A DNA stretch of 26,287 bases, taken from a virus. Its lineage: Duplodnaviria > Heunggongvirae > Uroviricota > Caudoviricetes. This document shows, piece after piece, positions 1 to 6,575 of the stretch (position 1 is its first letter; the number at the start of each line of letters is the position of its first letter). Position numbers and translations under genes: made by a program. The notes under the pieces were generated by a model, which worked only from the letters and a program-made list of their open reading frames with translations, searched no databases and was not told where the DNA came from. Where the stretch lies: the IMG/VR virus record IMGVR_UViG_2531839144_000012, positions 1 through 26,287 of that record; one strand, given 5' to 3'.

Positions 1-339
1 TTATAATTTGTTACTGTGCCACTCAAGGGCAATATCTTTGAAGGTGTTGTTTAACTGCGTTTCCCGGGCAATCTTTTCCTCTCGCTTCACTTCCATCAGA
101 TCGATTCCCCCAGAGATACCTCTTTTAGCTTCTTCAAGTTTTGCAGGAGCATCAGCTAAGGTGACCTCAGGATACACACCTAGTGCTAACAGCTTCTCTT
201 TACCAGCTACACGATACTTGAGACGCCAATATTCTCCTCCACCAGGTTTTACCAGGAGGTACAGACCACCACCATCAGCCAACTTGTAAGCCTTCTCTTT
301 TGGCTTGGCAGTGTCTATTTGACGGGCATTGAGTTTCAC
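1..339 (-). CDS. int: Tyrosine integrase, N-terminal part only (P4-type arm-binding domain); gene continues beyond window start
   Basis: Translation KLNARQIDTAKPKEKAYKLADGGGLYLLVKPGGGEYWRLKYR matches the conserved N-terminal domain of P4/CP4-57-type integrases; apparent GTG start at 339..337, upstream in-frame stop at 357..355; sits next to a tRNA 3' fragment. Confidence 0.8.
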   Translation of the reverse strand: MKLNARQIDTAKPKEKAYKLADGGGLYLLVKPGGGEYWRLKYRVAGKEKLLALGVYPEVTLADAPAKLEEAKRGISGGIDLMEVKREEKIARETQLNNTFKDIALEWHSNKL

Positions 340-493
340 TTGGGGGTATCTCCACTAAACTGAACAGCAAATCCCCTCAATTGCTTGTAGAGTTTGGGGT
401 ACTTAAATAGACGTCAAAAGACTAAAAGGGGCATTAATATACTGATTATAAGAGGTTTTTAAATACTTGAGTAGACTTGGGGAGACGTTAGAA

Positions 494-539
494 TGGTGCC
501 GATAATAGGAGTCGAACCTACGACCTTCGCATTACGAAT
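494..539 (-). other. tRNA 3'-end fragment (tRNA-Thr-like: anticodon loop TTCGTAA, variable loop, T-arm GGTTCGACTCC, acceptor 3' strand, CCA) = probable phage attachment core (attP or attR); not an intact tRNA
   Basis: Minus-strand read ATTCGTAATGCGAAGGTCGTAGGTTCGACTCCTATTATCGGCACCA has canonical T-loop, 5-bp T-stem, 7-nt acceptor strand and CCA; no D-arm or 5' acceptor strand upstream; matches my recollection of E. coli thrW 3' half. Confidence 0.6.
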
Positions 540-615
540 TATAAGAATCCGCTGCTAATTCAAAGTATTATCCCATCAACACTGCGCTCACACGTCCCAC
601 CACATCAAAACATGT

Positions 616-675
616 AAAGCCTTGCAAGCCATTGCGAGGCCTTATGTGTCTCAGTTTTGTCCCACCTTGTATTAC
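616..675. repeat. Copy 1 of a ~60-bp imperfect direct repeat; contains a 9-bp-stem hairpin (GCCTTGCAA-GCCA-TTGCGAGGC, 619-640) followed by T-rich tract
   Basis: Aligned by eye to 5128-5186 with about 7 differences over ~60 nt. Confidence 0.7.
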
Positions 676-1006
676 GACTTGCATAGCCAATGAAGATAAA
701 CGTGACGACAAACGGCGCAGCAGTCTTCTTTTCCTTCATACTTTCCCCATCCAGCATGCATACCTTTATGCCATAACTGAAGTTTATGTCTGTTATGAGC
801 GAGAAGCGGAAGTTCAACGTGATAAAGCTCAGGAACATTGTCGTTGATGATGATAAAGAGGATCAGACTAACTTAGCACTTCTCATCACGTTGATAAGGC
901 ATAGAAACCGAAAACACTATTGTGAATATCATTTCACTATAGTAAATTCAGGTAAGCTCTTTTCGTTCGTTATTACATAAAATAAAGTTCTCTCTAAGGT
1001 TGAAAA

Positions 1007-1450
1007 ATGTTAGATATCAGAATGTCACGACCATCTGAAGCATCAGAGATCATACAAATCTGGAAGAGTTCAGTGGATGCTACCCACGACTTTCTTACAG
1101 GTCATGACCGACAAGAAATCGAAAAAGAAGTTATCGGCTTTTTCTCAGAAACTCCTGTATGGGTTGCAACAAATCAGGATGACCAACCGCTAGGATTTAT
1201 GTTTTTGCATGAGGGGCATCTGGAGGCACTTTTTGTAGCAGGCTCTGCTCGCGGACTTGGCGTCGGAAAACGTTTGATCTCTCATGCACTGGCGCTGCAT
1301 CCAGAGCTAAGCGTTGATGTAAATGAACAAAACCAGCAGGCTGTAGGGTTTTATCAGCATATGGGTTTTCAGGTATCAGGGCGTTCCGAGCTGGATAATC
1401 AGGGAAGGCCATACCCCTTGTTGCATCTGAGAATGGCCAATAACATGTAA
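1007..1450 (+). CDS. GNAT-family N-acetyltransferase
   Basis: 147-aa ORF; acetyl-CoA-binding-type motif region LFVAGSARGLGVGKRLISHA and C-terminal GFYQHMGF typical of GNAT fold; alternative start ATG at 1022. Confidence 0.7.
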   Translation: MLDIRMSRPSEASEIIQIWKSSVDATHDFLTGHDRQEIEKEVIGFFSETPVWVATNQDDQPLGFMFLHEGHLEALFVAGSARGLGVGKRLISHALALHPELSVDVNEQNQQAVGFYQHMGFQVSGRSELDNQGRPYPLLHLRMANNM

Positions 1451-1470
1451 CCAATGTGGCAGAGAAGATA

Positions 1471-2055
1471 TCATTGATTTTTTTGGCTAAAAGCCACGAT
1501 GTAAGAACAGCTCTGCTCACTATCTGGATTGCTCATTTGGTACTCGCTTGCAAAGGTAAGGGCAAGACAGTCACCGGCACGTAAATGATGGGTCTGATTT
1601 TTGACTCGAAAATCAAGGCTGCCACTCATCATCCAAAGCGTTTGCCCGGAAAGATGCTCATTTGCGGAGGCGGGTATCGTCAGCTCACCCATTGCAGGGA
1701 TTTCAACTTTGATCAGTTCCGGGCATGCCCCCGCAGGAGACAAAGACCAACGGGTGATGCCTGATTGCTCATCCGTCCAGTGCTGTTGCTGATGAGCAAC
1801 ACGAACCAGGGAATTCTGATGTTGCTCAAGCTCTGCAAAGAGTTTAGATAGCGTTACATTCATGGCGTTGGCCAGGCGGCTAAGGATAGTTGCACTAGGG
1901 CTGGAGATGCCTCGTTCAATCTTACTAATCATGGCCTGACTGACGCCCGATCGTTGAGCAAGCTCTGTTACAGTCAAATTGCGAGCCTTCCTGTGTTTAA
2001 GCAATAAACGTGCAATATCGCTATCTACTATCTGATTTTTAAATTTTTTATCCAT
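1471..2055 (-). CDS. XRE-family HTH transcriptional regulator with C-terminal cupin-like domain
   Basis: HTH motif LTVTELAQRSGVSQAMISKIERG near N-terminus when started at MDKKFKNQ (ATG 2055..2053, preceded by GAGAGGG Shine-Dalgarno); the ORF track extension to 2238 lacks an RBS and looks non-coding. Confidence 0.7.
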   Translation of the reverse strand: MDKKFKNQIVDSDIARLLLKHRKARNLTVTELAQRSGVSQAMISKIERGISSPSATILSRLANAMNVTLSKLFAELEQHQNSLVRVAHQQQHWTDEQSGITRWSLSPAGACPELIKVEIPAMGELTIPASANEHLSGQTLWMMSGSLDFRVKNQTHHLRAGDCLALTFASEYQMSNPDSEQSCSYIVAFSQKNQ

Positions 2056-2359
2056 TTCCGCCCTCTCTTTCACCAACCTGATTATGCCATTACATAAATT
2101 GGCCTGAAATAAATGATTTTGTAAGTCTGTAAATTCACTACTCCTAAGCGCGGCACTTCGTTTATACGCACCTATGACCTTAAAATATGAGTTGGTAAGC
2201 TTAACGTCCGCTTTTGGCACATAGCAGACCAGAGACACTGGCGTAAAGCCATGGAGGATCGGTGGGAGGAGGTAAAAATCCTCTCATGCAAAAAATACGC
2301 AAAATCGATAACAGTTGGAAATCATTCAATACTCGCACTATCGGAAGTTCACCAGCCAG

Positions 2360-2393
2360 TCGTAGCACGTTCTTGCATACGACGTGGCTACGG
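2360..2393 (+). promoter_or_regulatory. Hairpin H1: 5-bp + bulge + 5-bp stem with 11-nt loop TCTTGCATACG
   Basis: CGTAGCACGT / ACGTGGCTACG pairing seen directly; homologous to hairpin at 3381-3412 with compensatory stem substitutions. Confidence 0.45.
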
Positions 2394-2487
2394 GTTTCGA
2401 GACCGACCCGATCATCAAACGAAACATAAAATTAGCTCACATTATGAGGAAAGGTATCTTTTGCGCTATGTAAATTCAAAGGGTTAG

Positions 2488-3357
<870 letters not shown>

Positions 3358-3380
3358 GTATTCAATTGATAAGATTAAAC

Positions 3381-3412
3381 CGCAGCACGTTATTGCATAC
3401 AACGTGTCTGCG
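3381..3412 (+). terminator. Hairpin H2 (CGCAGCACGT-TATTGCATACA-ACGTGTCTGCG) followed by TTTT; candidate terminator for the GIY-YIG-like gene
   Basis: Stem-loop and downstream T-run seen directly; same architecture and loop motif as H1. Confidence 0.45.
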
Positions 3413-3904
3413 TTTTCAACTCCGCCGCCCCCTATCATGATTGGACAGCACTTGCAAAAAAAAGAAATTAGTATTCTCCGCAGGACACCGGTCAGATAGT
3501 GCGGCAGATCAATGTCTGGTGAATATTGATGACCGCTGCCCGCTGATTCTATTGCCGAAACTGTGCGGGAAAAGATGTGGCAAGATATTGTTGGTAAAAA
3601 ATTCTCAGCGACTTTATGCCAGCAAATCAGTTTGCCTGGCATCCAGTATCGTGTGCGGTGGATAATGTCAAAAAACATGGGGAGTCGATTAAACAGGTAT
3701 AATCGTTAAAAACCTTCAAACTCCAGGCAAAACCCTATTTCATAGAACATGTACTTTCATCTGGTATACATGAACGAATTATGACTGCGTTAGTAAAATT
3801 ATCCTGGTTAAATTACAGGCAGAGATATATGTTCCAGTCCAGTGCGTTTTCGTTTACAATATTTATCTTTCATTATCACTTGACTTTATTAAAAGAGGTT
3901 CGTT

Positions 3905-4972
3905 GTGACGAATGTTTTTGGGAAGAGAATATATACACTGGATGTTCTGAGAGGATTTGCCGCACTTTCCGTTGTGTTATGGCATTGGCAACATTTTTTT
4001 ATGAAAAAGAATGCTGCATCTGACATAATCATAAACCGCCAACCTTTTTATGAATTTTTTTCCGTCTTTTATCATTACGGTTTATATGCTGTCGAATTGT
4101 TTTTTATGATTTCTGGATTCATATTTTTTTATCTATACGCTGACAATATACACAGCAATAAAACCTCAGCAAAAACTTTTATAGTTAACCGTGTCAGTAG
4201 ATTATATCCACTTTATATATTTACATTTGCTGTCGTGGCAATATTACAAATTATTTTCTTTAAAAGTCATAATTATTTTTTTGTTTATCCTATGAATGAC
4301 ATTTACCATGCCATTCTGAATTTATTGATGATTCAATCATGGGGATTTGAGCGAGGTTGGTCCTTCAACGCCCCGACATGGTCCGTGTCGATTGAAGTAC
4401 TTATGTATATGATATTTTTTATATTATGCAAGTTCACATCAAAAACAACATTCATATCAATTTTAATAGTTGCATTGTCGTACTACTTTTTCAAAATTAA
4501 CAATCCCATAATGATCGGCGCATTCTCTTTCTTTATTGGTGGTCTGACCTATAAAATTACGATTGCGGCCATAAAAAATATTAGCGCAAAGTTATTTTTT
4601 ATTTTTGCTTGTGTTTTTCTATTGATCTCATGGGGAGTTATCTTTACCCTGCAAGTAGCAGATATATTCTCAATTATCTTATTCGGATTTACCTCCATAA
4701 TCTTTTTCCTTGTATCAATTAGCGCAATACGAAACGATTTTGGAAAAAAAATTGAATGGTTGGGTGATATCAGTTATTCATCTTATCTTTTACATTTTCC
4801 TTTGCAAATCATTGTTGTTTATTTAGCTGACAAGATTGGCTATGGACGCGATCTTTTTTACAGCCCCAAGGTATTCATTTTATTCATGCTTACATTAATG
4901 GCAATTAGCTATATGTCATATATATTCATTGAAAAACCATCGCAACAATTCATCCGAAATAAATTTCATTAA
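3905..4972 (+). CDS. Acyltransferase-3 family integral membrane O-acyltransferase (OafA/Oac-like; candidate O-antigen/surface polysaccharide acetylase, lysogenic conversion gene)
   Basis: 355-aa highly hydrophobic multi-TM protein; N-terminal LDVLRGFAALSVVLWH and VELFFMISGF motifs typical of acyltransferase_3; GTG start with AAGAGG RBS; strongly AT-rich relative to the phage structural genes; position between tail fibre and att as in Sf6 oac. Confidence 0.8.
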   Translation: MTNVFGKRIYTLDVLRGFAALSVVLWHWQHFFMKKNAASDIIINRQPFYEFFSVFYHYGLYAVELFFMISGFIFFYLYADNIHSNKTSAKTFIVNRVSRLYPLYIFTFAVVAILQIIFFKSHNYFFVYPMNDIYHAILNLLMIQSWGFERGWSFNAPTWSVSIEVLMYMIFFILCKFTSKTTFISILIVALSYYFFKINNPIMIGAFSFFIGGLTYKITIAAIKNISAKLFFIFACVFLLISWGVIFTLQVADIFSIILFGFTSIIFFLVSISAIRNDFGKKIEWLGDISYSSYLLHFPLQIIVVYLADKIGYGRDLFYSPKVFILFMLTLMAISYMSYIFIEKPSQQFIRNKFH

Positions 4973-5127
4973 GTAAAGTCACTTTGCAATGATTAGAGTC
5001 AACACCTATTACTTTGACTCTAATCACACTGCATTTTATCCGTATGCTCTATATTCATAAAAATCGACATCAATATATAGAATGGAAATAAACGAAACCG
5101 CGTCACATCCTCAATATAGAAGCGTTC

Positions 5128-5186
5128 AAAGCCTTGCAAACCATTGCGAGGCTTTATGTGTCACAGTTTTGTCCTACTTTTATTAC
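5128..5186. repeat. Copy 2 of the ~60-bp imperfect direct repeat; hairpin GCCTTGCAA-ACCA-TTGCGAGGC (5131-5152) then TTTATGTGTCACAGTTTTG
   Basis: Aligned by eye to 616-675; lies between convergent acyltransferase (+) and tail fibre assembly (-) genes, so likely also a terminator. Confidence 0.7.
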
Positions 5187-5232
5187 ACAAAAAGAATTGA
5201 GTTACAATTAAACCGCTTCTCCTCAACAGATT

Positions 5233-5649
5233 TTATTCAGCGAAGCACGGTTCATCCGGCCACTCAATATCCGGTGCAATGCTGGTATCTGTTGCCGTCA
5301 CAGCCTCGATATAATCCAGCACAACGTTAAGTCGGGTAGTTTCTTCTTGCGTCAGTTTGCGCCCGGCCTGCAGCTTTAACTGAATCACGCTGATATTAGC
5401 CATTGCTGCGTCTGTCAGCGACTGTTTTTTCTGTTCAGCGTCAGCTACCAGTTCATCATGAGAACGTTCCGGAGTGGGTGGTGCAGTAAATCCCCCGTCT
5501 GAATACACCCAGCCGATTCCGGGCTGCTCACTGATATCAGAAATATTAATGAGCTGCTGATTATCCGGCACTGTGAATTCAGCCTCGCCATCCCAGACAA
5601 TGACATTCACAACCATCCCATTTTCAATAACTGCATATGACGCATTCAT
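5233..5649 (-). CDS. Tail fibre assembly protein (Tfa)
   Basis: Start [11 protein letters not shown] (ATG 5649..5647) overlapping stop of upstream tail fibre gene; sequence and position typical of phage tail fibre assembly chaperones. Confidence 0.7.
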   Translation of the reverse strand: MNASYAVIENGMVVNVIVWDGEAEFTVPDNQQLINISDISEQPGIGWVYSDGGFTAPPTPERSHDELVADAEQKKQSLTDAAMANISVIQLKLQAGRKLTQEETTRLNVVLDYIEAVTATDTSIAPDIEWPDEPCFAE

Positions 5650-6575
5650 TATGCAAACTCCTCGATAATACAAATTCCAGCAGCACCTTTCCCGCCCGTC
5701 ATATTAGTTCCGCTATAACCGGCATCGTATGCACCACCGCCACCTGAACCATATGCCTTACCGCTAACACCACCGCCAGCGCCTGCGCGTCCACCGCCTC
5801 CCCAGTACGATGCACCACCTTTACCGCTGACGCCGATATTCCCGGACTGACCGTCGCCTCCATCTCCACCAGTGATGCGGATATCGCCAATATTCGGTAC
5901 GCCTCCGTAACCACCGTTTGTGTTTGTGATTCCTGGTTTTCCGGCACCTTCACCTCCTGGAGCAATTAACGATGAGAACGAGCTATCACCTCCCTTGTAA
6001 CCCACTGACGCACCGACACCGCCTCCACCGCCTGCACCGATAACGACAGGATAACTATTCTCTGTCAGGGTCATTGTTGAAATAATTGTTCCACCTGCTC
6101 CACCGCCTGCACCAAAAAACGTTTCGTTACTGGATGCTGCTTTGCATCCGCCTCCTCCGCCACCGCCGCCCGTTATTGTGACCCTGATCCGTTTTGTTCC
6201 TGGTGTCGGGGTGTACGTACCTGATGACGTGAAAACCCGGGTATTCACCAAGCGTCCCACGTATCCGCTTGTATCTCCCAAACCAAGGTTTTGAAGAGCC
6301 GTTTTCACCGTGCCGTCCGATTTGATATCGCCAAACGGATTTTTGCGACTTAACAGCAGCGCGCGAAGCGCGGTAAGCAGCTGGTCATGCCGCCCCTTCT
6401 CCAGGCTGGCACCGGATGCCTCCACCACGCTGCAGAGCTCTTCCTGCAACATGTCAAAGTAGTCATCATCCAGATCGGTGGCAGGCGAGCCTGTCTGGGG
6501 GTTACCACGGGTAAAACCGTTCTTACCCGCGCCGAACTTATCCTTTTGCGCGGTTTTCGTGTCTATACGATGCAT
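5649..6575 (-). CDS. Tail fibre protein with glycine-rich (collagen-like) repeat region
   Basis: Conserved phage tail-fibre N-terminus [26 protein letters not shown] followed by long Gly-rich tract; located between baseplate genes and Tfa. Confidence 0.7.

Follow-up and report, generated by a model that had tools for sequence, protein, structure and literature searches.

The DNA analysed here, hereafter the window, is the 26,287-nucleotide Caudoviricetes record IMGVR_UViG_2531839144_000012 of IMG/VR. Near its left end it carries two convergent genes, one encoding a small acetyltransferase of the GNAT family and the other a predicted regulator in which an XRE-type helix-turn-helix (HTH) is followed by a cupin domain (XRE-cupin). 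We found that this pair forms a discrete, horizontally traded cassette, bounded by repeats, which moves between unrelated mobile elements. The cassette spans positions 788-2229 (1,442 bp, both promoters included) and recurs at 97.4-99.5% identity in five settings: the G/FI slot of P2-like prophages, between the tail-fibre assembly gene and the sheath gene, which is the position of fun(Z); the lambdoid nin region, between the replication genes and hokD/Q, phage Evi being among the carriers; the end of a lambdoid prophage; CP4-like islands, where it lies beside a dynamin/RdcB/patatin cluster and an iron-uptake operon; and SfV-like prophages. Its limits are identical across unrelated elements. 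As to function, the explanation that we consider probable is that of an autonomous 1.44-kb cassette encoding a ligand-released local repressor together with a YjaB-type acetyltransferase.

The ORF (open reading frame) coordinates and the domain and fold matches bore out the original prediction of a GNAT gene and an HTH-cupin regulator gene lying tail-to-tail, 20 bp apart, in a prophage accessory region (Table 1). Its description of the pair as phage cargo also held, since the pair lies in a slot of variable content, bordered on one side by the prophage end (~488-492) and on the other by the tail-fibre assembly gene. Both are real genes under strong purifying selection, because their dN/dS (ratio of nonsynonymous to synonymous substitution rates), measured against alleles ~81% identical in DNA, was 0.05-0.10. 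The regulator was taken to start at the Met of position 2055, which is the start in all 21 of the 21 aligned homologues; a longer ORF with a GTG start, reaching 2238, is also present. A terminator scan of the intergenic gap was negative and no obvious bidirectional terminator was seen there. The gap measures 19-25 bp in the Enterobacterales loci and ~63-90 bp in Acinetobacter.

Table 1 Position of the gene pair, its boundaries, putative control elements and neighbouring genes in the window
Feature	Position	Strand	Remarks
P4-type integrase N-terminal stump, 112 aa	1-339	-	Arm-DNA-bind_3, 9.3e-24; stop at 1-3; outside prophage
Left terminal inverted repeat, type A, GTCTGTTATG-AGCGAG-AAGCGGAAGTT	788-814	+	outer arm partly decayed
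Dual-box operator candidate, ACTATTGT-N12-ACTATAGT	916-943	+	phylogenetic footprinting upstream of GNAT
Putative GNAT promoter	-35 TTGTGA 920-925; -10 TAAATT 943-948	+	17-nt spacer; read by eye
GNAT gene	1007-1450	+	ATG start, 147 aa
Stop-to-stop gap of the convergent pair	1451-1470		20 bp
XRE-HTH/cupin regulator gene	1471-2055	-	194 aa from ATG at 2055
Putative -10-like hexamer CATAAT, regulator's own promoter	2081-2086	-	within conserved block 2056-2140
Right terminal inverted repeat, type B, GTCTGCTATG-TGCCAA-AAGCGGACGTT	2203-2229	-	right cassette limit in all contexts
GIY-YIG protein, PD-T4-3, single-gene anti-phage system	2584-3357	+	PADLOC 3.8e-140; PHROG 5356; Pfam LEM-3_GIY-YIG
Acyl_transf_3 membrane acyltransferase	3905-4972	+	PHROG 3333 'O-acetyltransferase', 1.5e-40

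Hairpin repeats at the cassette boundaries

The packaging of the pair between repeats is the most interesting feature of the locus. In its canonical form the 27-bp repeat is a hairpin (GTCCGCTT-N8-AAGCGGAC, then GTT) with a folding energy of -15 kcal/mol, the copies in the window being partly decayed, and its 6-nt centre distinguishes two types, A (GAGCGA) and B (GTGCCA). When IMG/VR was scanned for the repeat pattern, 93 contigs matched, and 80 loci were analysed (L104-L183). They contained 167 repeat sites, against none in shuffled sequences, and the sites formed 56 convergent pairs enclosing at least 34 classes of cargo, among them NUDIX plus HAD, Tmn, DarTG and a RES-domain protein. Of 65 cassettes examined, 63 had one repeat of each type. 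Repeat-bearing loci were also found outside the scan (L096, L097, L099, L002, L003 and L198, the last being phage P2). The same repeats bound a SIR2 gene in strain a15, genes for a 314-aa protein in NCTC11129 and a 592-aa protein in Z247, a TonB receptor with a Fec-type ABC transporter in M15, a second GNAT in the locus type of strain 536, and fun(Z) in P2 (L198). On the SfV-like backbone, the GNAT-XRE pair, SIR2 and the 314-aa protein occur as alternatives. The correspondence with P2 is close: the cassette lies in the exact position of fun(Z), with the same type-A repeat on the FI side, the same type-B repeat on the G side and identical outer flanks, whereas the cargo is unrelated, fun(Z) being a gene that blocks phage T5.

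Cassettes also occur in tandem, joined by a repeat, an 18-bp linker and a second repeat (27 + 18 + 27 bp). Of 5,426 complete E. coli genomes, at least 690 matched one such 72-bp junction, which is annotated in none of them. When repeats from different contexts were compared, the outer ~10 nt tracked the backbone and the inner ~15-17 nt tracked the cargo, which places the exchange junctions in the centre of the repeat. This pattern would fit a double exchange at two heterospecific sites, and would also fit double crossovers on short homologies, of the kind carried out by phage Red/RecET-type functions (PMC2327257).

The arrangement recalls other systems in which gene modules are bounded by short repeats resembling recombination sites, such as integron cassettes and the pdif modules of Acinetobacter plasmids. 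Discrete modules, a variety of backbones, tandem arrays and a fixed junction are common to them and to the cassettes described here. The sites, however, differ, as those found here are two heterotypic inverted hairpins for which no similarity to integrase or Xer-like sites was found. Comparison by eye showed no convincing likeness between the 27-bp repeats and Tn3-family terminal repeats, dif/Xer sites or invertase sites. A full-text literature search for the repeat sequence returned unrelated primers only, and recent hotspot papers are silent on the repeats. If they have been described before, the likeliest source, judging by its title, is the paper of Nilsson et al. (2004, Mol Biol Evol 21:1).

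We regard it as possible, with somewhat less than even confidence, that the pair is one of the cargoes of an extensive and almost wholly unannotated system of cassette exchange in which the A and B repeats act as incompatible sites, and that its own contribution is possibly a new ligand-gated acetylation function that changes the physiology of the lysogen or its susceptibility to phage. Paired exchanges, A with A and B with B, would then swap whole cargoes among integrative islands and prophages of the P2-like, SfV-like and lambdoid kinds, and the cargoes so swapped would include defence systems, conversion genes and metabolic modules. According to a 2026 study of P2/P4 hotspots, it is not known how cargo is exchanged (PMC13586616). 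If the repeats are indeed handles for swapping cargo, they would offer an experimental entry into this open question, and the exchange system would supply a mechanism for the rapid 'shuttling' of hotspot cargo left unexplained in that survey. They would also provide a simple sequence signature with which to delimit cargo and to find new defence or conversion genes.

The acetyltransferase, the adjoining regulator and a candidate operator

The GNAT matched the Pfam families Acetyltransf_10, Acetyltransf_7 and Acetyltransf_1 with E values from 2.5e-13 to 1.7e-11 and, more specifically, passed the NCBIfam equivalog NF007807 (PRK10514), scoring 230.3 bits against a cutoff of 134, with residues 1-144 covering positions 2-145 of the 147 of the model. 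The partner GNATs of Serratia and Acinetobacter likewise scored above this cutoff. In the PDB, the structure of E. coli YjaB (2KCW) matched residues 2-142 with an E value of 2.1e-49. YjaB is among the four lysine acetyltransferases found by Christensen et al., and its Y117 is essential, as the Y117A and Y117F variants lose activity (PMC6199490). In the alignment, Tyr116 of the cassette enzyme (AVGFYQHMGF) corresponds to this catalytic residue (AVGFYKKVGF), and the acetyl-CoA motif RGLGVG corresponds to RGCGVG of YjaB (R/Q-x-x-G-x-G/A). The two proteins therefore share the catalytic Tyr, the acetyl-CoA motif, a length of 147 aa, the NF007807 model and an end-to-end alignment. They differ in that the cassette gene is mobile, is present in ~1% of E. 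coli genomes and lies beside an XRE-cupin gene and ACTATWGT boxes, whereas yjaB of K-12 is monocistronic, between yjaA and metA, with no regulator gene adjoining. As the cassette enzyme is 52.7% identical to K-12 YjaB and 73% identical to the regulator-linked GNAT of Acinetobacter, it belongs to a separate, regulator-linked subclade and is a paralogue within the YjaB family, not the orthologue of yjaB. Matches to GNATs of resistance or detoxification (models for PaiA, ArsN1, streptothricin acetyltransferase, RimI and MshD) were weak and far below cutoff, and such assignments were rejected.

The N-terminus of the regulator matched Pfam HTH_3 (E 6.9e-17; 61.7 bits against a cutoff of 23), and the match to Cupin_2 was below threshold (17.9 against 27.2 bits). 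An AlphaFold2 model, built on a 21-sequence alignment of the family and with a pLDDT (predicted local distance difference test) of 82, consisted of a five-helix HTH domain followed by a beta-barrel. In a Foldseek search this model retrieved as its top match the Vibrio HTH-cupin regulator 1Y9Q (E 4.7e-14), which was also the best match by sequence, and isolated cupins aligned to the barrel with a root mean square deviation of 1.9-3.3 A over ~95 residues. By model and fold comparison, the protein is thus an XRE-HTH with a C-terminal cupin barrel. The HTH (SGVSQAMISKxERG) was invariant across the family alignment. No conserved His metal triad was found in the barrel in that alignment, and for this reason the cupin looks like a ligand pocket and not a metal centre. 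The two-domain architecture is that of regulators such as PuuR and 1Y9Q; the full-length match to PuuR was, however, weak (44.6 bits against an equivalog cutoff of 211), and no puu genes lie nearby.

Conservation of the pair was followed from identical copies to distant relatives. The exact regulator protein was found in 267 blocks of public assemblies, and the 147-aa GNAT was its convergent neighbour in five of the five non-redundant contexts retrieved. Among 5,426 complete E. coli genomes, 53 had the pair, always as a single chromosomal copy and in a mobile element in every context opened; 13 carried the allele of the window and 40 an allele 81% identical (strain 536, for example). In E. coli 95-3322, of the strain 536 class (L003, 8001-9958), the order is an icd remnant, the pair, a second and unrelated GNAT, sitABCD and lambdoid tail genes, and the second GNAT of such 536-type loci lies in a repeat-bounded cassette of its own. 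In Serratia marcescens the pair is a fixed, single-copy chromosomal locus (89% identity for the regulator and 83% for the GNAT at the aa level, ~81% at the DNA level) between nrdDG and an ArsP-type permease/phn operon. In Acinetobacter the respective protein identities were 60% and 73% and the neighbours are ordinary metabolic genes. Pantoea carries the pair on large plasmids, and two Pantoea plasmids (H127 and H128) matched the GNAT part only.

A scan of one genome per species yielded 12 gammaproteobacterial loci whose regulator shares 59% identity or more, in Raoultella, Mangrovibacter, Cedecea, Pseudescherichia, Leclercia, an Enterobacteriaceae isolate and six species of Acinetobacter. The convergent GNAT was kept in 11 of these, one of them interrupted by an insertion, and the remaining locus (L021) retains the regulator without the GNAT; the flanking genes differed in every genus. 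The interrupted copy is that of Acinetobacter haemolyticus CIP 64.3 (L026, 4658-7591), in which an insertion of ~2.5 kb has split the GNAT, leaving residues 1-81 and 79-145 2.5 kb apart. More distant relatives of the regulator (36-46% identity, from alpha- and deltaproteobacteria and actinobacteria; L028-L095) were without this GNAT, and in 34 of these 68 loci a different GNAT, of ~170 aa and either divergent or co-directional, immediately adjoined the regulator gene, which suggests that the regulator family is tied to GNAT genes in general. Over the wider family a GNAT was directly adjacent in 45 of 80 loci, in three arrangements. The flanks of the chromosomal copies, being different in every genus, gave no functional hints, and a link with arsenic or phosphonate genes, seen in Serratia and Acinetobacter, did not hold in other genera.

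Phylogenetic footprinting upstream of the GNAT gene revealed two boxes of sequence ACTATWGT, conserved in 8/8 Enterobacterales and 6/6 Acinetobacter loci while the spacer and the flanks diverge, and placed at the same distance from the GNAT start in all of them, from the E. coli elements through Acinetobacter. ACTATAGT is a perfect palindrome, ACTATTGT is one base off, and the centres of the boxes are 20 bp apart. The dual box is unique in the window, where 0.03 occurrences are expected, and is absent from the K-12 yjaB promoter. A consensus scan gave no match at the promoter of either gene. The hexamers of the putative GNAT promoter, with 8 of 12 matches, fall under the threshold of the scanning tool. 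Upstream of the regulator, GGCATAATCAGG was invariant in the eight Enterobacterales loci and CGCATAATA was conserved in Acinetobacter. From the conservation and position of the dual box, over the likely GNAT promoter, we infer that it is a candidate operator bound by the regulator.

A probable ligand-released repressor and competing explanations

The XRE-cupin factors of Pseudomonas aeruginosa provide a precedent for such a unit. All those studied are local repressors that bind palindromes in the promoter of a neighbouring gene, they are thought to leave the DNA once the cupin binds a metabolite, and their local units have been described as transferable by horizontal gene transfer (PMC7901475). 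One of them, PA1884, has as its single target the adjacent GNAT gene PA1885, according to RNA sequencing, DNA affinity purification sequencing, quantitative reverse transcription PCR and electrophoretic mobility shift assays (Trouillon et al. 2021, PMC7901475). The likeness to the cassette considered here is one of architecture, an XRE-cupin factor adjoining a small GNAT gene; the cassette pair differs in being packaged as a repeat-bounded unit in prophages, and the gene orientation may differ as well.

The conserved pair, the dual box and the PA1884/PA1885 precedent led us to adopt the model of a ligand-released repressor. The XRE-cupin protein, made from its own promoter, would bind the two ACTATWGT boxes as one dimer or two and would keep the convergent GNAT gene off, because the boxes overlie its promoter. 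A small molecule lodged in the non-metal cupin barrel would release the repressor. The YjaB-type enzyme, once made, would transfer the acetyl group of acetyl-CoA to an amine substrate. The acceptor may be lysine residues of proteins, an activity demonstrated for YjaB, or else the very metabolite or xenobiotic that is sensed. For the lysogen, the unit would serve as a conditional conversion or fitness function, outside phage development, and the cassette would have entered the attR-proximal hotspot of the SfV-like prophage by exchange at the two heterotypic 27-bp hairpin repeats. We infer the binding of repressor to operator, the gating by a ligand, the substrate of the enzyme and the benefit to the host. 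The small-molecule-responsive control suggested by the original prediction is probably right and the most likely logic, given the conserved adjacency and the XRE-cupin precedent (PMC7901475). By itself the pair is of modest importance, as a mobile, prophage-borne addition to the XRE-cupin/GNAT local regulatory units. A regulator-linked subclade of YjaB with a candidate operator and a predicted ligand-sensing partner could nevertheless help to reveal the targets of YjaB-type enzymes.

Several points weigh against this model. A convergent layout is less usual than a divergent one for a regulator and its target; no ACTATWGT box was found upstream of the regulator, so that autoregulation, common in this family, is not indicated; and the conserved box may simply be a promoter, or the site of another factor. 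The lysine acetyltransferase activity of YjaB was seen on overexpression only (PMC6199490). In addition, the contexts in which the pair is found (beside PD-T4-3, in the fun(Z) slot of P2 and beside the dynamin/patatin cluster) could point to an anti-phage role.

Such a role, in which the regulator or the GNAT would sense infection and the invading phage or mobile element would be blocked through acetylation of one of its own or of the host's components, appears unlikely to us, even if the company kept by the cassette is of the right kind. The corresponding slot of SfV-like relatives holds SIR2, a restriction-modification pair, a kinase or a lipase, the pair adjoins PD-T4-3, DarTG and Tmn are carried in cassettes with the same terminal repeats, and P2-like prophages have the cassette in place of fun(Z) in the interval from G to FI, which has been described as a defence hotspot (PMC9122126). 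Its presence in such hotspots hints at a part in defence but does not prove it. On the other side, in a search of PADLOC-DB v2.0 the GNAT matched no family at E<=0.01 and the regulator matched generic HTH models only (HTH_VI, the N-terminus of RmrA and capH). The fixed single-copy locus of Serratia marcescens and the ordinary metabolic neighbours in Acinetobacter do not suggest defence either, cassettes with the same repeats also hold non-defence cargo (the TonB receptor with its Fec-type ABC transporter; NUDIX with HAD), and the closest relative, YjaB, is an enzyme of housekeeping type.

A slightly smaller probability was given to the two genes being unrelated neighbours that travel together, a stand-alone acetyltransferase moron and an orphan regulator whose targets lie elsewhere. 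In favour of this reading, the two convergent genes have promoters of their own, no operator common to both upstream regions was found, L021 keeps the regulator without the GNAT, and the two Pantoea plasmids matched in the GNAT part only. Chance association is, however, hard to reconcile with adjacency in 11 of the 12 gammaproteobacterial loci despite full turnover of the flanks and at identities down to 60% (regulator) and 73% (GNAT), with the 45 of 80 loci in which a GNAT lies beside a regulator of the wider family, or with the PA1884/PA1885 precedent.

The tRNA-acetylating toxin of the TacT/AtaT type envisaged in the original prediction, which would have the XRE protein as its antitoxin in the manner of TacT/AtaT/ItaT systems, was largely refuted. 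GNAT toxins do occur on mobile elements, the pairing of a small mobile GNAT with a DNA-binding partner is common to both arrangements, and the regulator weakly matched the HTH antitoxin models HipB, HigA and PezA (17-33 bits, all below cutoff). The classification by hidden Markov models proposed there (TacT/AtaT-like versus others) nevertheless assigned the GNAT to another subfamily, that of YjaB, through the NF007807 equivalog. None of the NCBIfam matches of the GNAT named a GNAT toxin, and none of its 34 PDB matches (E<=10) was TacT, AtaT, KacT, ItaT or a chain named as a toxin; structures of TacT/AtaT-type toxins do exist in the PDB. The partner gene is convergent instead of operonic, and no ORF of the ribbon-helix-helix (RHH)/DUF1778 antitoxin type was found upstream of the GNAT. 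The search for a small antitoxin-like ORF in that region, also proposed, turned up a single ORF (786-980, 64 aa), which had no NCBIfam match, overlaps the terminal repeat and the operator candidate, and is not conserved in Serratia, where homology to the locus begins at ~910. Finally, overexpression of YjaB in E. coli is possible (PMC6199490).

The idea of a dead, functionless host fragment captured by imprecise excision, to which the ~81% DNA identity with the chromosomal Serratia locus might have lent some credit, is refuted by the two intact ORFs with their low dN/dS, by identical cassette limits in five unrelated elements, and by the comparison with chromosomal homologues, in which the Serratia marcescens locus proved orthologous (83-89% aa identity) and no near-identical source, housekeeping or other, was found in the E. 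coli chromosome (YjaB, 52.7%), so that the objection raised in the original prediction fails.

The prophage around the cassette

From position 492 to ~23,900 the window is ~97% identical to the serotype-converting myoviruses SfII, SfV, SfI and SfIV of Shigella and E. coli. In NCTC11129 homology starts at window position 492, right after chromosomal paoD and a LysR remnant, which sets the prophage end (attR) at ~488-492. The prophage is SfV/SfII-like, and the pair lies within it, ~300 bp from attR. The pair was found in this SfV-like backbone in none of the complete E. coli genomes and in one metagenome contig (L005). The cargo region extends from the prophage end to the tail-fibre assembly gene (5233-5673). 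Its right part (~2203-5230) is conserved in many E. coli prophages, and its left slot (~813-2203) was occupied in collinear relatives by SIR2, a type II restriction-modification pair, a protein kinase, a lipase, DUF6650, an AraC regulator or unknown proteins. Between the prophage end and PD-T4-3 the prophage has a cargo hotspot. PD-T4-3, which adjoins the pair, is conserved together with the downstream acyltransferase gene in many E. coli prophages of SfV type. The latter gene occupies the position of the gtr serotype-conversion genes of SfV/SfII phages, and its product is probably an O-antigen acetylase. Outside the prophage, the left edge of the window retains the stump of an integrase that strain a15 has at its full length of 404 aa, suggesting the remnant of a tandem island at the same attachment site.

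The window contains no tRNA according to a tRNA scan. An Rfam scan of positions 1-5300 gave no match at E<=1, so that no known RNA element accounts for the repeats or for the conserved non-coding blocks. A 72-nt direct repeat (597-668 and 5109-5180; 81% identical, ~90% in its core) flanks the whole cargo region, and both copies include a GC-rich hairpin (GCCTTGCAAGCCATTGCGAGGC) with the look of a minus-strand terminator of the tail operon. The non-coding segment 2290-2398 is ~90% identical to unannotated sequence of HK97, HK106 and many Stx-converting phages (119 phage records), and explains most of the ~3,200 E. coli genomes matched by a query spanning 700-2500; in strain AH04, a restriction-modification pair is inserted directly beside the counterpart of this segment.

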